A DNA stretch of 64,000 bases. Origin: a bacterium (GTDB lineage Bacteria > Patescibacteriota > Gracilibacteria > Peribacterales > Peribacteraceae). Position numbers and translations under genes: made by a program. Positions 4,806-50,444 of the stretch are shown here, piece by piece. The notes beneath the pieces were generated by a model that made no database searches, was not told the DNA's origin, and saw nothing but the letters and a program-made list of their open reading frames with translations. The stretch covers positions 34,156 through 98,155 of the forward strand of contig JAQCIJ010000001.1 of the NCBI GenBank assembly GCA_027592135.1, written 5' to 3'. Within the stretch, counting starts at the first letter, position 1, and each line of letters begins with the position of its first letter.

Positions 4806-7292
4806 ATGTACGATTCATCATCAACAGAAAAGAAATGGCAGGCCAAATGGGAAGAGGCAAAATCTTATGTTATAGACCTCAAAAAGGCCAAAGATCCCTA
4901 TTTCTCTCATGTAATGTTCCCCTACCCTAGTGGAGATAAGCTCCATGTAGGGCATTGGTATAACTATGGGCCAGCAGATAGCTTTTCTCGCTATCAGCGA
5001 ATGCTCGGCAAAGATGTATTCTGCCCTTTTGGATTTGATGCCTTTGGTCTTCCTGCAGAAAACTATGCTATTAAGACAGGAGTGCATCCAGATGACTCCA
5101 TTACCACAAATGTCGAGACGATGATCATCCAGCTCAAGCGTATTGGGTGTATGTACGACTGGGACAAGATGGTAAATACCTCAAAGCCTGAGTACTACCG
5201 GTGGACGCAGTGGCTTTTTTTACAGATGTATAAGAACAAGCTTGCGTACCGTAAAGATGCGAATGTGAACTGGTGCGAGAGCTGTAAAACCGTTCTCGCC
5301 AATGAGCAGGTGTGGGAGGGAAAATGTGAACGGTGCGATACCGATATTGTCCTTAAGCCCATGACACAGTGGTATTGGAAGGTAAAAGATTATGCGCAGA
5401 AACTGCTCGACGGTCTGGAAAATCTGGATTGGCCGGAGAAAACAAAGACCATGCAGCGAAACTGGATCGGCCGAAGCGAGGGAATGAATTTTACCTTCAA
5501 AGTGAAAGATTCCGAACTTGAGTTTGAGGTGTACGACTCAGTGCCGCAAACGTATCGAGCTCAGACATTCGCAGTCATAGCACCGGAGCATCCCATGCTC
5601 CTAAGTCTCATAAAAGGGCAAAAGAACGAGAAGGAGGTTCTGGATTTCATAGAGCGAATGAAGGTGAAGAAAGCGACGCAGAAATATAATTTTGACGAAG
5701 ATCTGGAAGGAGTCTTCACCGGTCGTTTCGTGGAGTTTGTTACCGGAGATCTTCCTTTGTGGGTGGCATCGTTCGCTGTTATGGATTACGGGTCGGGTAT
5801 CGTAAACTGTTCCGCTCATGACGAACGCGACTTTGCCTTTGCAAAGAAGTACGACATTCCGTTGCACGTCGTTATGGTTCCCGAGGACGAAGCGGAGGCT
5901 GAGAAAGTGCGAAACTTGGAGTACTGCTTCTTTAAAGATCCGCAGGGAGTCATGCTGGAACCCGAAGAATTCAAAGGCAGGCGTTGGGGTGAAGTGCGAC
6001 AGGATATCATCAAGTATTTGGAAAAAGAGGGTATCGGTTATCCCACGGTTCAGTATAAACTTCGCGACTGGAGTATTTCTCGTCAGCGGTACTGGGGAGC
6101 ACCCATCCCTATTGTGTATGATCCAGAAGGAAACCCTCATCCTATTCCTGAGGAGCATCTTCCATGGGAACTTCCTCGTGATGTGGACTTTAAGCCAACA
6201 GGAGTTGCTCCTCTTGCAGCCTCGAAAGAATTACTCGAGCGCACAGAGGCGATATTTGGAAAAGGTTGGACGCCAGAAGTCGATACCATGGATACTTTTG
6301 TTTGTAGTTCGTTCTATTCATTTATGTATCTTTCTACAGAAGGATACGGTACAAAATTTACCAACGCATCTCCGACAGCATCCGATCGAGAAGCGCAATT
6401 CATCGACCCGACTATAGAAAAGAACTGGATGCCAGTAGATATGTACATCGGAGGGCCAGAGCATGCTTGCATGCATTTGATTTATTCTCGTTTTGTAACA
6501 ATGGCTTTAAAAGACTTTGGGTATGTTTCCCATGAAGAACCCTATAAGCGACTTATACACCAAGGCCTGATAACGAATGGTGGAGCAAAGATGAGTAAGA
6601 GCAAAGGCAATGTCGTAAGCCCAGATGCATTTGTCGAACAATACGGAAGTGATGTCTTTAGAATGTACCTCATGTTCATGGGACCATTCGAAGGAGGAGG
6701 GGACTGGAGTGATACGGGTATCAAGGGTATCGATAGGTTTGTGCAGAAAGTATGGAAGCTATTTGGGGAAACCGAGGAATCCGAAGAAACCAAGGAATCC
6801 AAAGAGGTGGAAGTAAAACTCCATCAGACCATTAAGAAAGTGACAGAGGATATTGAGAGATTACACTTTAATACGTGTATATCAGCACTAATGGAACTGA
6901 TGAACACCGTCGAAAAGCATAAAACTTTTAATAAGAACTTAGCTCTAACTGTAGCAAAATTACTTTCTCCACTTGCACCACATTTAGCAGAGGAGCTTTG
7001 GGAGAAGCTTGGAGGTCCCGCCTACGCCAAGGCTACAGGGAGCAAGGAAGGATTTGTTATCGACCAACCATGGCCAACATACGATGAAAAAATGTGTGTG
7101 TCAGCAACAGTAGAAGTTGCTGTACAGATCAATGGAAAGCTCCGCGGAACCATCACTATAGATGCAGCTGCTTCCGAAGCGGATGTAATTACTCTTGCTA
7201 AAGAAGTACCAAATGTTTTGAAGAATCTGGAAGGCAAAGAGATCAAGAAAGAGATCTATGTTCCGGGGAAGCTCGTCAGTTTGGTTATATAA
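4806..7292 (+). CDS. leuS: Leucine--tRNA ligase
   Basis: 828 aa with the class I motifs HVGHWYNY (HIGH-like) and KMSKSKGN, plus a CP1 editing-domain insertion. Confidence 0.95.
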   Translation: MYDSSSTEKKWQAKWEEAKSYVIDLKKAKDPYFSHVMFPYPSGDKLHVGHWYNYGPADSFSRYQRMLGKDVFCPFGFDAFGLPAENYAIKTGVHPDDSITTNVETMIIQLKRIGCMYDWDKMVNTSKPEYYRWTQWLFLQMYKNKLAYRKDANVNWCESCKTVLANEQVWEGKCERCDTDIVLKPMTQWYWKVKDYAQKLLDGLENLDWPEKTKTMQRNWIGRSEGMNFTFKVKDSELEFEVYDSVPQTYRAQTFAVIAPEHPMLLSLIKGQKNEKEVLDFIERMKVKKATQKYNFDEDLEGVFTGRFVEFVTGDLPLWVASFAVMDYGSGIVNCSAHDERDFAFAKKYDIPLHVVMVPEDEAEAEKVRNLEYCFFKDPQGVMLEPEEFKGRRWGEVRQDIIKYLEKEGIGYPTVQYKLRDWSISRQRYWGAPIPIVYDPEGNPHPIPEEHLPWELPRDVDFKPTGVAPLAASKELLERTEAIFGKGWTPEVDTMDTFVCSSFYSFMYLSTEGYGTKFTNASPTASDREAQFIDPTIEKNWMPVDMYIGGPEHACMHLIYSRFVTMALKDFGYVSHEEPYKRLIHQGLITNGGAKMSKSKGNVVSPDAFVEQYGSDVFRMYLMFMGPFEGGGDWSDTGIKGIDRFVQKVWKLFGETEESEETKESKEVEVKLHQTIKKVTEDIERLHFNTCISALMELMNTVEKHKTFNKNLALTVAKLLSPLAPHLAEELWEKLGGPAYAKATGSKEGFVIDQPWPTYDEKMCVSATVEVAVQINGKLRGTITIDAAASEADVITLAKEVPNVLKNLEGKEIKKEIYVPGKLVSLVI
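6768..6803 (+). repeat. In-frame 2 x 18-nt tandem duplication inside leuS (ETEESE/ETKESK)
   Basis: GAAACCGAGGAATCCGAA is followed by GAAACCAAGGAATCCAAA. Confidence 0.8.
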
Positions 7293-8251: not shown

Positions 8252-9706
8252 ATGCTAGACTCTCAGCTCATGGACCACCCATTCGATCGATATGCGGCAT
8301 ATACCGATGTCGCTGCCCTTAAAGAGAGCAGTGCACAGCCGCTACGTAAATGCATGAGAGTGAATACGTTAAAGATGGATACAGAAGCTTTCAAAAAGTA
8401 TGCAGCGCAGAAGAACTGGAAGCTTGATCCAGTATTATGGTGCAAAGAAGGATTTTTTATAGATAGAGAAGACAGATCTGTACCTCTAGGAAAAGATCTA
8501 CTTCATCTCCTTGGTCACACCTACATGCAAGAAGCAAGTAGTATGTTGCCGGTTGCCATGCTGGACCCTCAACCCGGAGAAAACATATTGGATATGGCAG
8601 CAGCACCTGGAAGTAAATCGACACAGATTGCGGCACGTATGAATAACCGTGGGGTATTAATTGCAAACGATATGCAAGAAGCACGGCTGCAAACACTGCG
8701 CGCAGCACTGAACCGTTTGGGTGTAATGAATGTGATTGTAACTAAGAAAATGGGCCAATGGTTTGGTTCGCACATGACTGGTCGCTTCGATCGTGTGCTC
8801 ATTGATGCTCCATGTACAGGGCAGGGGACTGCTCGAAAGGATGCAGGAGCTTTAAAATATTGTTCGATAGATTCCATTGGGAAAAATGCAAAACTTCAGC
8901 GTGAATTACTAGAAGCTGCAGTACATGCGACGAACATTGGCGGACGTATAGTCTACTCAACATGCACACTCACTCCGGAAGAAAATGAAGACGTCGTCTT
9001 ATCGGTTCTTTCCAAATTTCCTAATCAGCTAGAAGTACTTGATCCTCGTAACTGCGGAGTGGATAACGAAAAGTGGAAAGTGGATAAAGCAATCGAAGAT
9101 TCCTTAATAGTGCAGCGCAGTCTTTATCCTTTATCCACTATCCACTATCCATTCCTCAGGCTTTGGCCACAAACCTATAACTCCGAAGGATTCTTCTGTG
9201 CTGTGCTCAAAAAAACAGGCCCAACCAAAGATGCAGAGAAGACCGATCTCGTAAAGCTTGATAAAGAAGTGTTGCAGAAAGGTCGCGTAAAAGAAATTTG
9301 TGAGTTCTTAGAAATGCGTTTCGGTACATCGTTTAAAAACAAAAGTGAAGTATTGCTGCAAAGCATCGAACGACTGTGGATAACCACAGAGGAAGTGTTT
9401 ACGTTCAAACTCCCCTGCTCTAATGCAGGTATTGGACTCCCCTTTGGGAAAACGCTGACCAAGTCCCCTATTATGATCGACCATGATATCGCAACTTTGC
9501 GTGGATCTGCTGTAACCAAGGGGGTTATAGATCTTACCGAAGAGCAGTGGAAATTACTTGCCCGAGGGCAGGATATCGATTGTGATCCTGAGCTTTTCGG
9601 CAAAGTACTTTTCCAATACAACGGAATCTGTATAGGAAGAGGAAATGCGAGAGAGGGTCGTTGTAAAAACCAACTTCCTCGCTGGATTGTACAAGTATTG
9701 TCATGA
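8252..9706 (+). CDS. RsmB/RsmF (NOL1/NOP2/Sun) family rRNA m5C methyltransferase with a C-terminal extension
   Basis: Motifs DMAAAPGSKSTQIA (SAM motif I), DRVLIDAPCTGQGT, YSTCTL and EGFFCAVLKK. Confidence 0.85.
   Translation: MLDSQLMDHPFDRYAAYTDVAALKESSAQPLRKCMRVNTLKMDTEAFKKYAAQKNWKLDPVLWCKEGFFIDREDRSVPLGKDLLHLLGHTYMQEASSMLPVAMLDPQPGENILDMAAAPGSKSTQIAARMNNRGVLIANDMQEARLQTLRAALNRLGVMNVIVTKKMGQWFGSHMTGRFDRVLIDAPCTGQGTARKDAGALKYCSIDSIGKNAKLQRELLEAAVHATNIGGRIVYSTCTLTPEENEDVVLSVLSKFPNQLEVLDPRNCGVDNEKWKVDKAIEDSLIVQRSLYPLSTIHYPFLRLWPQTYNSEGFFCAVLKKTGPTKDAEKTDLVKLDKEVLQKGRVKEICEFLEMRFGTSFKNKSEVLLQSIERLWITTEEVFTFKLPCSNAGIGLPFGKTLTKSPIMIDHDIATLRGSAVTKGVIDLTEEQWKLLARGQDIDCDPELFGKVLFQYNGICIGRGNAREGRCKNQLPRWIVQVLS
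9123..9150 (+). repeat. Four tandem CTATCC-family heptamers inside the rsmB-like CDS (TTTATCC TTTATCC ACTATCC ACTATCC)
   Basis: Read directly. It is translated as LYPLSTIHYP, immediately before the conserved LRLWPQ...EGFF motif. Confidence 0.9.
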
Positions 9707-26644: not shown

Positions 26645-27865
26645 ATGCTACTTACTGATACATTCAAATCGGCATACACAGCAATCACCGCTCATCGGAT
26701 GCGGTCGATCCTTACGATGCTTGGTATTATTATCGGAGTGGGTTCTGTAGTGCTGATGGTATCTGTAGGACGCAGTTTCGAGCGATATGTGCTGGATCAA
26801 GTAGAGTCGTTCTCGAGTCACTTAATTGAGGTCTATCCAACTGGTTTCGAGAAATTTGGACGCACACTTGATTCATTAAGCTTTGCAGATTACGAGGCTG
26901 TCTTGAAGCTCACGACAGTAAAAGATGTAGCACCAGTTATTTTTATTCGTGAAAAAGTTTCGGTAGGTACAGAAGAGATCTCTCCAAATATTTTTGGGAC
27001 GACACACCATTTTTTCAGTAACTATAGTCTCAAGCTACGTGACGGTAGAATTTTAAACGATTCAGACTTTAAAGGTGCACGCTCTGTTGCAGTGCTAGGA
27101 TTCCAAGCGGCAGAAGATTTGTTTGGACCAAACAATCCTTTGGAAAATCGCATTCGTATCGGTCAGAGGTTTTATACGGTCGTTGGTGTAATGGACACCG
27201 TCGGTTCTGCACTACTGCAGGATCTTGACTCTTTTGTGTATGTACCGTTTACCACAGCGCGTGCACAGACAGGGCAGAAGTTTATGAGTTATATGACGAT
27301 GAAGGCGACTATCGAAGATGATGCATTAGCAATGGCAGATGTCACATCTCTACTTCGTCAGAGACACGGTATAGAAAACCCTGATAATAATTACGACAAA
27401 GACGACTTTCGCGCACGGAGTGCATCTCAAGCGACAGAGATAGTAGGAACAGTAGGTCTTGGCCTTACAGCATTTATCGGTCTGATCGCAGGTATTTCTC
27501 TGATAGTAGGAGGAATCGGAATTATGAACATCATGCTTGTGTCTGTTACAGAGCGCACAAGAGAGATTGGTCTTCGTAAAGCACTTGGCGCTACTCGCCA
27601 AGATATTATGCGTCAGTTCCTTATAGAAGCAGTAGCGCTTACGATGCTTGGGGGAACGATCGGTATTATCGGAGGAGCAGTCATTGGAGCAGTGCTTACT
27701 GCAGTAGCGAGTAAGTTCGTTGGTCACGTACCATTTTTACTATCTATCCCTGCATTACTGTCAGCCGCCGGTATGGCTTTGGCTGTAGGACTGCTGTTTG
27801 GGATAGTCCCTGCAAGAAAGGCTGCAGATTTAAGCCCAATGGAAGCTATAAGATGGGAGGGGTAA
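26645..27865 (+). CDS. ABC transporter permease, FtsX/MacB family (copy 2)
   Basis: Paralogue of the preceding gene with the same MNIMLVSVTERTREIGLRKA motif. It starts immediately after the previous stop. Confidence 0.9.
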   Translation: MLLTDTFKSAYTAITAHRMRSILTMLGIIIGVGSVVLMVSVGRSFERYVLDQVESFSSHLIEVYPTGFEKFGRTLDSLSFADYEAVLKLTTVKDVAPVIFIREKVSVGTEEISPNIFGTTHHFFSNYSLKLRDGRILNDSDFKGARSVAVLGFQAAEDLFGPNNPLENRIRIGQRFYTVVGVMDTVGSALLQDLDSFVYVPFTTARAQTGQKFMSYMTMKATIEDDALAMADVTSLLRQRHGIENPDNNYDKDDFRARSASQATEIVGTVGLGLTAFIGLIAGISLIVGGIGIMNIMLVSVTERTREIGLRKALGATRQDIMRQFLIEAVALTMLGGTIGIIGGAVIGAVLTAVASKFVGHVPFLLSIPALLSAAGMALAVGLLFGIVPARKAADLSPMEAIRWEG

Positions 27866-28095
27866 CTACCGTACATCGTCGCATAGAGATCTTCTTCTAG
27901 AGAATGAAATCGATGGTGCATAGAATATTCGAGAGTACCAATAGCATGTGCATTTGAAAGTATTCCTTTGCTATTACCATCTATACGATCAGACAAGCGT
28001 TTCTCCGTACCTCGCATACTTTTTTGTACTCCTTGAATATGGAAAACAATGTCTTTAAGGGTAACGCCGCCGTTGTTTGCATCGTGTTCTTTCAT
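27724..28095 (-). CDS. Questionable hypothetical ORF whose last ~47 codons run antisense to the permease 3' end
   Basis: 123-aa ORF. The first ~77 aa look protein-like (MKEHDANNGGVTLKDIVFHIQGVQKSM...). The remainder overlaps the convergent CDS by 142 nt. Confidence 0.3.
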   Translation of the reverse strand: MKEHDANNGGVTLKDIVFHIQGVQKSMRGTEKRLSDRIDGNSKGILSNAHAIGTLEYSMHHRFHSLEEDLYATMYGSYPSHLIASIGLKSAAFLAGTIPNSSPTAKAIPAADSNAGIDSKNGT

Positions 28096-28217
28096 GGGTT
28101 TTGTATGATAGATGTTGAAAGGGTGAGGAACAAGTTGAGAAATGGAACGCTCACATTTTCCTTGAGATAATAGGTAGATACGCTAAAATCCTTCACGTGG
28201 GTCGGTACCGAAGTGGT

Positions 28218-28260
28218 TCAGCCGTCGCTCCTCGCTTCGCACGGAGCTATGGCCGACAAG
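28218..28260 (+). repeat. 43-nt GC-rich hairpin insertion, copy 1, in the D loop of the tRNA-like gene
   Basis: Sequence TCAGCCGTCGCTCCTCGCTTCGCACGGAGCTATGGCCGACAAG. GCCGTCGCTC pairs with GAGCTATGGC. Confidence 0.85.
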
Positions 28261-28283
28261 CAAACGGGTCTGGCTGTAAACCA

Positions 28284-28326
28284 TCAGCCGTCGCTCTTTA
28301 CTTCGTTACGAGCTATGGCCGACAGG
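28284..28326 (+). repeat. 43-nt GC-rich hairpin insertion, copy 2, in the 3' strand of the anticodon stem
   Basis: Sequence TCAGCCGTCGCTCTTTACTTCGTTACGAGCTATGGCCGACAGG. It is 35/43 identical to copy 1 and has the same length. Confidence 0.85.
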
Positions 28327-28349
28327 GATGGCTCCGCCTTCGGGGGTTC

Positions 28350-28445
28350 GCCTGCCCGCCGTAGCCATTGTGGAGCAATGCGTAGGTGGGAGTCCTTTCC
28401 AGACATGTTCGACCCCACGTCGCCTGCGGGCTATGAGGGGCAGGC
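28350..28445 (+). other. GC-rich structured segment closed by a long-range 8+7-bp helix
   Basis: GCCTGCCCGCCGTAGCC (28350-28366) pairs with GGCTATGAGGGGCAGGC (28429-28445). TCGCCTGC occurs as a direct repeat at 28348 and 28420. Confidence 0.5.
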
Positions 28446-28513
28446 AAAGACGCTCGAAGAGAGGAAATCAGGCGGGAGGTGATGGAGTTAAAGTATAGGT
28501 TCAAGATGTCTGA

Positions 28514-29101
28514 TTATTCTTCAGCATCAACCAGCTGACTCATGTATTCGACCTGTTCTTCAGAGCTCATATTAGCAGTTACATTATTCTTTGCTTCTTC
28601 GATTTGTTCCTCAAGGTGTTTTCTTGCACCTTCTTGGTCACCTATTGATTGTAAAGTAAAAGTAACTTTCCAGTCTTTGATGCGACTTAAGTAATGCTTT
28701 GTATAGCGATTTTTCGGTTCTACAGCATTGACAGCATCAATTGCTCGACCGTTTAAGTCTCCTACTTGTACACCAACGTCTAGCTTCTGACTAACTGTGA
28801 GGTCAGGTTGAATGATAAAGTACATACTGTTAGCAAGCATTGAAGCTCTGTTCAGTGTCTCTGCTGTATCCTGACTAGGAGTTTCAAGGCAGCCTTGCAG
28901 AGCTGTTCTATATTCTTCGATGGCACTCCGAACCTCTGCTAACTCTTCTTCGGTAATTTCAAATGATTGGGAAGCACAGCCTGCTAAAATTGGCAGACTA
29001 GCTGTTGCTGCAAGAAAGTGGCGCCTACTTATTATTACAGATGATGAGTCTGATGAGGATTCACGTGCTCTTTTAGTCACATATTGTTGCGTTAAGGACA
29101 A
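28514..29101 (-). CDS. Hypothetical lipoprotein with a twin-arginine-like signal peptide
   Basis: SRRHFLAATASLPILAGCAS combines an S-R-R-x-F-L Tat-like motif with an LAGC lipobox. The rest is helical with no recognised domain. Confidence 0.6.
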   Translation of the reverse strand: MSLTQQYVTKRARESSSDSSSVIISRRHFLAATASLPILAGCASQSFEITEEELAEVRSAIEEYRTALQGCLETPSQDTAETLNRASMLANSMYFIIQPDLTVSQKLDVGVQVGDLNGRAIDAVNAVEPKNRYTKHYLSRIKDWKVTFTLQSIGDQEGARKHLEEQIEEAKNNVTANMSSEEQVEYMSQLVDAEE

Positions 29102-29300
29102 AATCCTAAAATGATTAGAGCTAGACTATAATGGTTATTGGATGTGTTATCCAACTAAATTTAGAGAAAAATGAAGGTGAATTTTAAACCTAATCATGCA
29201 ATTTCGTTGAACTCTAGTCATTTTGCCATTAGACTACAAAAGTCCGAAACGTATATAATACCTTTGGTCATAGCTCTTTTTAAGATAGAATTCTCAACGT

Positions 29301-29385
29301 GGGTCGGTACCGAAGTGGTCAAACGGGTCTGGCTGTAAACCAGATGGCTCCGCCTTCGCTGGTTCGAGTCCAGCCCGGCCCACCA
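29301..29385 (+). tRNA. tRNA-Tyr (anticodon GTA), class II with a long variable arm, CCA encoded
   Basis: Manual cloverleaf: acceptor GGGTCGG/CCGGCCC, D stem CCG/CGG, anticodon stem TCTGG/CCAGA with loop CTGTAAA, 13-nt variable arm, T arm GCTGG-TTCGAGT-CCAGC, discriminator A, CCA. Confidence 0.93.
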
Positions 29386-47808: not shown

Positions 47809-47959
47809 GTAACTGCTCACTGACTTTGTACTATTTTGGCTAATGGCAAATGAATTTGCCACATTATACACACCTGTTAGCCGGCGGTTTAAACCGCCGG
47901 CTAACATTCAGTTCTATGCCGAATGTATTCGGCAATCAAGAATGCTAGTGAGCAGTTAC
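47809..47959. mobile_element. 151-bp MITE-like element: 13-bp perfect terminal inverted repeats flanked by an 8-bp direct duplication
   Basis: GTAACTGCTCACT (47809-47821) and AGTGAGCAGTTAC (47947-47959). CCTATTTT lies immediately outside both ends (47801-47808 and 47960-47967). There are three internal hairpins and no ORF. Confidence 0.7.
47876..47905. terminator. Perfect 12-bp GC-rich hairpin GTTAGCCGGCGG-TTTAAA-CCGCCGGCTAAC inside the MITE-like element
   Basis: Read directly. It lies downstream of the stop of the 48026-49351 gene and could act as a terminator. Confidence 0.4.
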
Positions 47960-50356: not shown

Positions 50357-50444
50357 TGGTGCCGCAAACTGGATTCGAACCAGTACGACCAATTACGGTC
50401 AAGGGATTTTAAGTCCCTAGTGTCTACCATTTCACCATTGCGGC
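50357..50444 (-). tRNA. tRNA-Leu (anticodon TAA), class II, CCA encoded
   Basis: The reverse complement folds as GCCGCAA-TG-GTG...CAC-T-AGGGA-CTTAAAA-TCCCT-(17-nt variable arm)-ACTGG-TTCGAAT-CCAGT-TTGCGGC-A-CCA. Confidence 0.95.

Follow-up and report, generated by a model that had tools for sequence, protein, structure and literature searches.

The split tRNA-Tyr copy that begins at position 28199 of the stretch of Peribacteraceae DNA analysed here (the window, 64,000 nt) is probably a displaced 5' fragment of the ancestral tRNA-Tyr gene, which borders a variable cassette and has been colonised by REP-like hairpins. A sequence-only reading had presented it as a bacterial tRNA with several archaeal-type short introns. 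That striking claim is replaced here by an ordinary one, a pseudo-tRNA, a cassette border and palindromic repeats; a bacterial tRNA gene interrupted by introns of archaeal style is improbable here. The split copy would represent positions 1-71 of the 85 of the ancestral gene, non-functional and still behind the original promoter. About 1.1 kb of variable DNA (the tail 28396-28502, one cargo ORF and a new upstream region) would part it from the working tRNA-Tyr, and four palindromic repeats of 32-43 nt, members of a putative REP-like or miniature mobile hairpin family, would have colonised the left copy because it was dispensable. The repeat family is absent from Rfam, has a sharp architecture and clear covariation, and shows the same motifs in distant phyla.

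A promoter-like site (TTGAGA-16 nt-TAAAAT, 28162-28189, plus strand; 10 of 12 matches in a consensus scan) lies immediately 5' of the split copy. The flank that contains it is orthologous to the upstream flank of the functional tRNA-Tyr in a sister genome (L049 5056-5132 versus window 28142-28217, 94.8%), and by this comparison the site is probably the ancestral tRNA-Tyr promoter. The split copy opens with tRNA-Tyr positions 1-19 at 28199-28217 (the 5' strands of the acceptor and D stems with part of the D loop; 19/19 against 29301-29319). Positions 20-42 follow at 28261-28283 (the remaining D arm and the anticodon stem-loop to CCA; 23/23 against 29320-29342), and positions 43-66 at 28327-28350 (the end of the anticodon stem, the variable arm, the 5' T-stem strand and the T-loop TTCG; 22/24 against 29343-29366). 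All three are on the plus strand. The 5' T-stem strand reads GGGGG in the split copy and GCTGG in the intact gene. As first read from the sequence and confirmed with a repeat finder, the segments 28199-28217, 28261-28283 and 28327-28342 match positions 1-58 of the intact tRNA-Tyr at 58/58. The two 43-nt insertions between them also stood up to examination: 28218-28260 lies in the D loop, between GTGGT and CAAAC, and 28284-28326 in the 3' strand of the anticodon stem, between ACCA and GATGG. The boundaries of both are unambiguous, they are 83% identical to each other over 41 nt, and no target-site duplication was found at either. A CRISPR-like arrangement (repeat, 23 nt, repeat) was rejected, since the 'spacer' and both flanks form collinear tRNA sequence.

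The insertions are hairpins of one family. A covariance model of the family (R1), built from other genomes only and without any window sequence, was run with filters off on the 64 kb and gave exactly four significant copies, all in this block and one on the minus strand; the repeat count for the source genome covers these 64 kb, where no copy lies elsewhere. Copy 1 (28218-28260, plus strand; TCAGCC GTC GCTCC..GGAGC TAT GGCCGA CAAG) scores 49.8 bits (E 4.8e-10) and copy 2 (28284-28326, plus strand) 44.3 bits (E 1.1e-8). Copy 3 is 40 nt long and lies in reverse orientation in the T loop (28351-28390, minus strand; 19.1 bits, E 0.019 in the window). Its reverse complement is CCCACC TAC GC..GC TAC GGCGGG CAGG, and its orthologue in another genome, L033, scores 27.5 bits (E 3.9e-4). 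Removal of copy 3 joins GGTTCG to AGTCC and restores a sequence identical to the intact T loop. The AGTCC at 28391-28395 (plus strand; tRNA positions 67-71, the end of the T loop and 2 nt of the 3' T-stem strand) is identical to 29367-29371 and is the final tRNA-similar stretch; the equivalent AATCC in L033 matches the intact tRNA of L033. With this parse the tRNA identity is 70/72 up to position 71 and then ends. Neither the T stem nor the acceptor stem has its genuine 3' strand, and the split copy would be expected to yield no working tRNA.

A 17-nt spacer that is not tRNA-like follows at 28396-28412 (TTTCCAGACATGTTCGA, plus strand); it is kept among the block copies (alignment A2). Hairpin copy 4 (28413-28444, plus strand; CCCCAC GTC GCCTGCGGGC TAT GAGGGG CAGG) scores 33.4 bits (E 5.5e-6), and elements nearly identical to it follow stop codons in three unrelated contigs from metagenomes, L044, L045 and L048. 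The block ends with a conserved stretch of 58 nt (28445-28502, strand not assigned) with codon-like, period-3 substitutions: of the 14 columns that vary among the 4 copies within columns 308-356 of alignment A2 (about window 28449-28497), 12 share a codon phase. Conservation among block copies stops at 28502. The peptide of the tail, searched with phmmer against 1.84 billion representatives, matched only one repetitive 1177-aa protein, which was judged irrelevant, and a spurious 89-aa ORF across the block matched in the protein database only the spurious ORF of strain L041. A tmRNA-like reading, with a tRNA-like domain and a start-less ORF, was rejected: ARAGORN calls no tmRNA, the topology is wrong and the peptide C-terminus is unconserved. 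A long hairpin of 28347-28366 with 28429-28448 and a consensus fold of the block tail were also discarded, neither having compensatory changes.

Between the split copy and the intact tRNA the ORF list gives a cargo ORF (28514-29101, minus strand, 188-195 aa) with no family match, Pfam included. A second promoter-like site (TAGACT-18 nt-TATAAT, 29230-29259, plus strand) precedes the intact tRNA-Tyr(GTA) at 29301-29385 (plus strand), which encodes CCA, is called by ARAGORN and by Rfam RF00005 (59.4 bits), and is presumably the functional gene. The only tRNA calls of ARAGORN and Rfam in the window are this gene and 50357-50444.

The hairpins have a common architecture consisting of a 6-nt stem, GTC, a variable hairpin, TAT, the second 6-nt stem strand and CAGG, are 32-43 nt long and GC-rich, and have the consensus TCAGCCGTCGC..GCTATGGCCGACAGG. 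Sixteen copies from other genomes fit this one architecture, with 91% of cells paired and double-sided changes in 8 of the 11 pairs; none of 500 shuffled controls reached the observed values. The insertions are precise, occur in either orientation and sit mostly at T-C steps in or beside loops, and copies are sometimes nested inside one another. In Opitutales the hairpins occupy non-tRNA intergenic sites beside housekeeping genes (13 sampled 8-kb stretches across 4 assemblies, 10 of the 13 from one assembly, with up to 4 copies in one stretch). A Babeliaceae genome and genomes of candidate phyla (CPR) carry them too, and in metagenome contigs they follow stop codons. The sequence-only reading had held that many such non-tRNA sites would indicate a plain pseudogene colonised by repeats, and such sites were found in Opitutales and other genomes. 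Hairpins lie less than 100 nt from tRNA genes at 4 of 11 CPR loci (L001, L004, L010 and L027), with L033 carrying them inside a partial tRNA copy, and at 0 of 12 loci in Opitutales and Verrucomicrobia. Sequence motifs shared across phyla point to a single factor that mobilises or binds the repeat. No enzyme that would mobilise it was identified; no transposase, RAYT included, is among the 25 most frequent families of 61 neighbouring ORFs (about 80 kb sampled), and the best 25 families listed for the 45 ORFs of the window are all housekeeping. Rfam has no family for the hairpin or the block (gathering threshold and E<=10 at the locus, E<=1 on six related loci), viral contigs scanned for the block tail and for the hairpin gave no match, and a literature search on the repeat sequence itself found nothing relevant.

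Comparison with related genomes shows an orthologous empty site. In the sister genomes L049 and L050, whose flanks are about 90% identical to the window, an uninterrupted tRNA-Tyr stands exactly at the site of the split copy, followed by a different 730-nt cargo and no hairpins. The near-identical strain L041 matches the window at 99.98% as far as 27870 and then carries two blocks separated by other cargo. The tRNA part of its block A has decayed, and its block B has two uncompensated stem-breaking changes within the 58 'exon' positions. The comparison proposed earlier returned both an uninterrupted tRNA-Tyr in a sister genome and decaying blocks in a near-identical strain; the order of events given for the locus is inferred. 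The cargo ORF of the window has no counterpart in L049 or L041, where other genes are found instead (in L041 ATP-grasp-like, HXXEE and GNAT); window, L041 and L049 have three different cargos. The more distant relatives sharing an SPFH gene (L052, L053 and L055-L057) have lost the tRNA-Tyr synteny and are hence uninformative.

Over its full length of about 310 nt the block shows about 90% identity among the window, L041 block B and L033, and hairpins 1-4 are at shared positions in all three; the flanks of L033 are unalignable to the window and not syntenic. L033 and L041 block B have an extra 29-nt insert in the anticodon stem. In L033 the block and the intact tRNA of that genome agree at 72/72 and share a compensatory variable-arm pair specific to the lineage. 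A short version of the layout was found upstream of tRNA-Ile in a Peregrinibacteria genome (L027) and of tRNA-Thr in a Peribacteria genome (L004): tRNA positions 1-12, a hairpin and positions 13-18 are followed, after about 55 nt, by the intact tRNA. A fragment of tRNA positions 1-7 with hairpins lies 5' of L041 block B. For each hairpin embedded in a tRNA (Tyr in three genomes, Ile in L027, Thr in L004) an intact copy of the same tRNA lies downstream at a distance of about 50 nt to 1.1 kb (about 0.65-1 kb in the Tyr blocks), and among the tRNA loci examined no hairpin lies within an intact tRNA. The displaced-fragment reading does not account for the conservation of the block in an unrelated context or for the hairpin-in-tRNA-fragment arrangements 5' of other tRNAs.

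The insertions are precise, lack target duplications and occur in either orientation; they are therefore taken to be DNA-level insertions, not introns, and the hairpins would have been mobilised as DNA. Miniature palindromic repeats, the Rickettsia palindromic elements among them, are known to invade genes, including RNA genes. The earlier fallback, a decaying paralogue colonised by repeats, is favoured by the evidence, but it is incomplete, the block being conserved in unrelated context. Against a displaced fragment stands the absence of any substitution in the 58 'exon' positions of the window. The 72/72 match in L033 calls for gene conversion, recent recombination or selection, and the block is conserved more than expected for a neutral pseudogene, unless it is mobile or constrained. 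Given its conservation in unrelated surroundings, the block may serve at the DNA or RNA level in some role other than that of a tRNA.

Such a role is made explicit by a second explanation, possible but a good deal less probable than the displaced fragment, in which the block is a functional unit, the conserved end or att-like recombination site of small cassettes at the 5' side of tRNA genes. Its own copy of the tRNA 5' end would restore the gene ('self-healing'), the hairpins would be built-in folded-DNA or protein-binding sites, and the tRNA-like part would be nonworking. The identity of the block between the window and L033 within unalignable, non-syntenic surroundings argues for such a unit, as do the hairpin positions common to the two, the different single-gene cargos bounded by the two L041 blocks, and the three distinct cargos of window, L041 and L049. 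The short layouts 5' of tRNA-Ile and tRNA-Thr, the 1-7 fragment at L041 block B and the closeness of hairpins to tRNAs in CPR, with none close in Opitutales and Verrucomicrobia, agree with it. Yet no recombinase lies in or beside the cargo in the window or L041, the tail is devoid of compensatory base pairs, and in Opitutales the hairpins are plain intergenic repeats far from tRNAs. The genome and metagenome scans yielded four block copies only; with a 20-base tail pattern the metagenomes gave, besides GC-rich matches of no relation, just three short hairpins of the family, all between genes. Further, a crossover within the first 19 nt fails to predict the identity of 'exons' 2-3 with the resident tRNA.

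A broader proposal, which we regard as speculative and on balance improbable, is that the hairpin P1-GTC-P2-TAT-P1'-CAGG is the working part of undescribed tiny integrative elements of CPR, Verrucomicrobia and Dependentiae, which in CPR would be aimed at the 5' part of tRNA genes and supply a replacement 5' end with a promoter. If true, the hairpin-interrupted tRNA fragments upstream of intact Tyr, Ile and Thr genes would be the residue of such elements, and cassette-like arrays of accessory genes would be built without a resident integrase. In CPR the repeat is tightly tied to tRNA genes and to duplicated tRNA 5' fragments; a form of tRNA-targeted integration that acts at the 5' side, as a mirror image, may lie behind this.

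That the locus is a real interrupted tRNA gene, whose transcript would lose its hairpins to an endonuclease and a ligase, or by cleaving itself, and become a tRNA-Tyr-like RNA, is very unlikely. The precision of the insertions without target duplication, the intact promoter-like site, the 58/58 'exon' identity and the insertion positions kept in L033 would all suit it. Excision of hairpins 1-3 restores everything through the T loop, and ARAGORN calls the product tRNA-Tyr. However, this repeat-consistent product has a T stem GGGGG/CUUUC with three G-U pairs and an acceptor stem with two mismatches and two further G-U pairs. ARAGORN also calls tRNA-Tyr on the 82-nt cloverleaf proposed earlier, and its perfect 7-bp acceptor stem stands, but this better-looking product needs an arbitrary third deletion, 28362-28411, whose ends coincide with no repeat boundary. 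The 40-nt insertion at 28351-28390 is the better-supported parse. The T arm and acceptor 3' strand of the earlier cloverleaf use terminal parts of hairpins 3 and 4, copy 4 supplying the ACCCC that had been taken as the acceptor 3' strand; by a rough estimate, the chance of finding a 7-nt acceptor complement by free deletion within about 100 nt is ~0.03-0.1. The non-canonical T arm noted for that product was confirmed (a T stem of 3 pairs and 2 mismatches in ARAGORN), and CCA is indeed not encoded at the split copy. Unspliced, the locus 28199-28420 is called as a tRNA by neither ARAGORN nor Rfam, even at E<=10, and the suggested check against RF00005 gave no match.

A script run over all registers found no complete bulge-helix-bulge motif (two 3-nt bulges, 4 bp between them and flanking helices) at any junction: inserts 1 and 3 form at most 2 of the 4 central pairs, and insert 2 forms 4/4 central pairs with flanks of 1/3 and 2/3. 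Group I introns have at least 200 nt, a catalytic core and a place in the anticodon loop, whereas these inserts, which occupy the D loop, anticodon stem and T loop, are 40-43 nt, far below group I or group II size, and have no Rfam match. Hairpin 3 is opposite in orientation to 1, 2 and 4, and the family is dispersed. The missing 3' strands, the uninterrupted tRNA-Tyr of the sister genome and the decay in L041 (uncompensated changes in block B, loss in block A) speak further against introns, as do the extra 29-nt anticodon-stem insert of L033 and L041 block B and the constant presence of an intact copy close by, hairpins never being seen in a sole functional tRNA. A literature search for tRNA introns in candidate-phyla bacteria found nothing relevant. 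When tRNAs are annotated or introns surveyed in metagenome-assembled genomes, loci of this kind can be a source of error.

An assembly artefact or a chimeric metagenomic contig is hardly credible: the genome was assembled from a metagenome and repeats may lead assemblers astray, but an independent Logan assembly of SRR2027816 reproduces the same 11.2 kb at 100% identity, the cargo ORF is in the same context on three contigs, and homologous blocks occur in the separate assemblies of L041 (NCBI) and L033 (another study).

The displaced, hairpin-colonised fragment can be compared with several known systems. Like archaeal (Thermoproteales) multi-intron tRNA genes, which are spliced by EndA, it has several short insertions at D-loop, anticodon-stem and T-loop positions. 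Archaeal short tRNA introns are thought to be mobile between tRNA genes. Here, in contrast to them, no complete bulge-helix-bulge is formed, one insert is reversed, the tRNA 3' end is missing, and the host is bacterial with an intact paralogue nearby. Integron attC sites are likewise imperfect hairpins that separate single-gene cassettes, their outer boxes paired, the spacer in the centre unpaired and the terminal stem-loop variable; here RYYYAAC/GTTRRRY boxes are absent, the hairpins lie in tRNA-derived sequence, and no integron integrase (intI) was seen among neighbouring genes. Rickettsia palindromic elements are also selfish palindromic DNA inserted precisely within the sequence of structured-RNA genes, but they are 100-150 bp and tolerated in functional genes, whereas the present hairpins are 32-43 nt and occur in tRNA sequence only near an intact copy.

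With the REP, BIME and REPIN repeats, which RAYT (Y1 HUH) transposases mobilise, the hairpins share more. Both are GC-rich imperfect palindromes of about 30-45 nt with covarying stems and conserved short motifs, dispersed between genes, often after stop codons or tRNA genes, in either orientation, clustered or nested, and without target duplication. The short imperfect palindrome with a covarying stem, by which REPs and REPINs are recognised, is shown by this family. Unlike classical REPs, which have a 5' GTAG, the family has GTC and TAT flanking the inner hairpin and a 3' CAGG; its motifs are common to CPR, Verrucomicrobia and Dependentiae, which is unusual for REPs, and within the 64-kb window its copies are confined to one locus. 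The surrounding arrangement resembles tRNA-targeted genomic islands with att-site duplication, in which a tRNA direct repeat brackets variable cargo beside a tRNA gene, the cargo varies between strains and tandem arrays form, as in L041. Here too a direct repeat of the tRNA (70/72 positions) bounds DNA that differs in the close relatives L049 and L041. An end integrase and a duplicated tRNA 3' part are absent; the duplicate is instead the 5' 71 nt, with the intact gene on the far (3') side, a mirror image, and the cargo is a single small ORF. The classical form is found in the sister genome L049, with the intact tRNA on the left, then the cargo, and a CACCA remnant on the right.

The tRNA-Tyr-like locus at about 28199-28420, hereafter the split copy, contains three segments (28199-28217, 28261-28283 and 28327-28342) that together reproduce positions 1-58 of the intact tRNA-Tyr(GTA) at 29301-29385 without a mismatch (19 + 23 + 16 = 58/58). 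As an earlier sequence-only reading had noted, they are parted by two 43-nt insertions, 28218-28260 in the D loop and 28284-28326 in the 3' strand of the anticodon stem. The insertions are 83% identical to each other and their edges are unambiguous, with neither target duplication nor deletion. The tRNA likeness extends to position 71 (70/72 identical) and ends there; positions 72-85 are missing. Excision of a third, reversed insert (28351-28390) from the T loop yields GGTTCG|AGTCC, the T loop of the intact gene. Downstream of the tRNA-like part follow a 17-nt spacer, a fourth insert (28413-28444) and a conserved 58-nt stretch. The intact gene is called by both ARAGORN and Rfam; the raw split locus gives no ARAGORN call and no Rfam match even at E<=10.

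The four inserts belong to a family of GC-rich hairpins. Scanning both conserved arms of the 43-mer over one genome per species returned 39 stretches; L numbers below denote sampled stretches of other genomes or metagenome contigs. The convincing matches share a common plan: a GC-rich inner hairpin, variable in length, has GTC on its 5' side and TAT on its 3' side; the two complementary 6-nt strands of an outer stem enclose these, and CAGG or CAAG follows. They come from several candidate-phyla genome bins (Patescibacteria, Peregrinibacteria, Peribacteria, Saccharibacteria), one Babeliaceae genome, and Opitutales assemblies in which many copies lie between ordinary housekeeping genes. Copies are found directly 3' of tRNA genes in L004 and L027 and behind stop codons in L044, L045 and L048. 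The outer stem covaries (TCAGCC/GGCCGA, CCAGCC/GGCTGG, TCAGCC/GGCTGA, CCCCAC/GCGGGG). In a 16-copy alignment drawn from other genomes only, 91% of cells are paired and 8 of 11 pairs have changed on both sides, values reached by none of 500 shuffles. Searched with filters off by a covariance model that contains none of its sequence, the entire 64-kb window yields four significant copies, every one inside the split locus: 28218-28260 (+, E 5e-10), 28284-28326 (+, E 1e-8), 28351-28390 (minus, E 0.019; its L033 orthologue, E 4e-4) and 28413-28444 (+, E 5.5e-6). No Rfam family matches the element. The interest lies in a hairpin family, undescribed and present across phyla, that is curiously tied to tRNA 5' fragments in candidate-phyla genomes.

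A sister population, L049 and L050, has flanking genes with about 90% DNA identity to the window (SPFH protein, 95%) and carries a normal, uninterrupted tRNA-Tyr at the exact site of the split copy, which is therefore the ancestral tRNA-Tyr site. The match of L049 5056-5132 to window 28142-28217 (94.8%) takes in the promoter-like TTGAGA-16-TAAAAT. Downstream of its tRNA lies a different cargo of 730 nt and then a CACCAtc remnant, which joins the sequence upstream of SPFH; in the window, that same sequence comes after the intact tRNA. By this comparison, inserted or variable DNA extends from window position 28218 to about 29300. The covariance model finds zero hairpins in L049 and L050. The L049 cargo (5199-5930), between tRNA-Tyr and the SPFH gene, holds two small minus-strand ORFs without family matches and is edged by the direct repeat CACCAT, a classical 3'-side arrangement at the same hotspot. 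Directly upstream of the ancestral tRNA promoter, small minus-strand coiled-coil-like ORFs lie in the window (27724-28095), L041 (6222-6527) and L049 (4374-4944); their N-termini are alike, and their number and length differ among these three close genomes.

L041 (GCA_027624115.1) and the window share 99.98% identity as far as window position 27870, beyond which they differ. It carries two versions of a block of about 310 nt, consisting of the split tRNA-like part and the conserved tail to 28502, with a 437-aa ORF between them; beyond come HXXEE and GNAT genes and, last, tRNA-Tyr. Block A adjoins the ancestral flank, and its tRNA part has decayed. Block B keeps hairpins 1-4 and has two substitutions in the 58 tRNA-matching positions, both stem-breaking. 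Upstream of block B are a tRNA-Tyr 5' fragment (T+GGGTCGG) followed by nested TAC-type hairpins (8512-8581) and a minimal 29-nt hairpin copy at 8445-8473 (TCAGCC TCC GCTAAGC TAC GGCCGA CAGG).

In L033, a different Patescibacteria bin with unrelated flanking genes, a homologous block lies about 650 nt upstream of that genome's own tRNA-Tyr, and its four hairpin positions are those of the window's block; excising its T-loop hairpin gives GGTTCG|AATCC, as in the L033 tRNA-Tyr. L033 also encodes a large serine recombinase (1305-2700, +; Resolvase, Recombinase and zinc-ribbon domains), whose gene runs convergently with the intact tRNA-Tyr and directly abuts its 3' end. This suggests a separate element integrated on that side. 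Simpler cases occur in L027 4430-4487 (Peregrinibacteria) and L004 4153-4097 (minus; Peribacteria), where an intact tRNA-Ile(TAT) and tRNA-Thr(CGT), respectively, is preceded, 51-55 nt upstream, by a copy of its 5' 12 nt, then a hairpin, then the 5-6 nt that continue the tRNA. More hairpins stand straight after tRNA-Val and tRNA-Thr in these stretches, and one, reversed, after tRNA-Ile.

The split copy still sits behind the probable promoter of the ancestral gene (28162-28189), and a second promoter-like site (29230-29259) lies in the variable DNA upstream of the intact tRNA-Tyr. An insertion or recombination in the T-arm region may have displaced the original 5' part of the tRNA, whose function the downstream copy would have assumed; hairpins would afterwards have spread as DNA into the dispensable split copy. 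Their insertion appears to be precise and mainly at T|C steps in or beside loops: GGT|CAAA, ACT|CGAA (other strand), GCT|CAG (L027, L004) and CCT|CTG (nested copies), with the anticodon-stem site CCA|GAT as the exception. Hairpin-guided single-strand transposition, as in REP/RAYT or IS200/IS605-type systems, shows similar behavior; no enzyme of either type was identified among the top 25 families listed by the family scans. The inserts are most like REP or miniature palindromic repeats, but the motifs differ from those of REP proper and no RAYT was found among those families, so that membership in REP proper is unproven. The locus is also like a tRNA-associated island with att duplication, but as a mirror image, with the 5' part duplicated, and it differs in having no integrase. 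Because family members directly follow tRNA genes in L004 and L027, the hairpins might be transcript-end structures; speculatively, those in the split gene would curtail transcription from the orphaned promoter.

A second reading, which we consider unlikely, makes the block the conserved end of small cassettes targeted to tRNA 5' parts, with the hairpins belonging to the cassette machinery. Three observations that sit awkwardly with the main reading leave room for it. First, the block is about 90% identical as a unit between the window and L033, despite surroundings that cannot be aligned. Second, its tRNA segments track the resident tRNA of each genome (72/72 in L033); the variable-arm pair is GTC/GAC in L033, GGC/GCC in the window and intermediate, GTC/GCC, in L041 block B. 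Third, the final 58 nt (28445-28502) show period-3 substitutions: among the four block copies found in all, 12 of 14 variable columns fall in one codon phase (alignment columns 308-356, about 28449-28497). The plus-strand frame reads KDARREEIRREVMELKYRF and has no conserved start codon; a minus-strand frame has the same third positions, and no relatives of the peptide were found. Block conservation goes no further than these codons, and the peptide read beyond them is different for each copy. An ATG at 28405 comes into frame only upon deletion of hairpin 4 (32 nt) and is not conserved in L033 or L041 block A.

The reading as a decaying paralogue colonized by repeats, the sequence-only reading's fallback, is largely right, given the decay in L041 and the intergenic hairpin copies elsewhere; conservation of the block as a unit is left unexplained by it.

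The interpretation first offered, a tRNA gene split by three archaeal-style introns, is not supported. Its conceptually spliced product is indeed called tRNA-Tyr by ARAGORN. However, the proposed T arm GGGGG-TTCGCCT-GCCCG borrows the reversed hairpin's stem and terminal CCTG, hairpin 4 supplies the proposed acceptor ACCC-C as its first stem strand, and the ends of the third deletion (28362-28411) coincide with no repeat boundary. By rough estimate, a 7-nt acceptor complement arises through a single free deletion with a chance of 0.03-0.1 when the GC-rich sequence is about 100 nt long, and for the contiguous complement TCGACCC (28408-28414, with wobble) the chance expectation is about one in three. 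Excision at the repeat boundaries leaves a T stem with three G-U pairs, a poor acceptor and no encoded CCA. No junction pair makes a complete bulge-helix-bulge motif, the inserts match no RNA family and fall far short of the size of group I or II introns, and the decay in the L041 blocks is uncompensated. One of the four inserts is reversed, an orientation that DNA insertion accommodates easily and a strand-specific RNA mechanism only with difficulty. The hairpins found within tRNA sequence all lie in a partial or duplicated copy, with the same tRNA uninterrupted about 50 nt to 1.1 kb downstream, and none of those found interrupts an intact tRNA, the pattern expected if insertions inactivate the gene. 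Neither archaeal-type nor group I tRNA introns match the locus in the features compared.

Other small palindromes were seen. The anticodon stem of the block in L041 (block B, 8713-8741) and L033 (3641-3669, minus) carries an extra 29-nt insert, CGTCGCACATGTGCGACAGTGGTAAACCA, after GTAAACCA, the counterpart of GTAAACCCA; it is a perfect 16-nt palindrome between 8-nt direct repeats (GTAAACCA). The window's block lacks it, and it is therefore a different small element or a slippage duplication. At 47873-47904 (minus strand), in the gap past a 441-aa minus-strand gene, a perfect hairpin, TTAGCCGGCGG-TTTAAA-CCGCCGGCTAA, is followed by CAGG; it matches the hairpin model weakly (E 0.86), lacks the inner GTC/TAT motif, and is perhaps distantly related or else a terminator-type hairpin. 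Hairpins are nested up to three deep in L032 7142-7199, L015 983-1027 and L029 1729-1773, each inserted at a T|C step of the preceding copy's loop. In bin casp150-mb.199, short tandem arrays are made up of hairpins in alternation with a 36-nt spacer of unchanging sequence (L010 2319-2435, L001 2252-2346, L002 2567-2700); no tRNA was found in the L002 stretch, and the L010 and L001 arrays lie about 55 nt downstream of tRNA-Ser (CGA and TGA, respectively), on the opposite strand.
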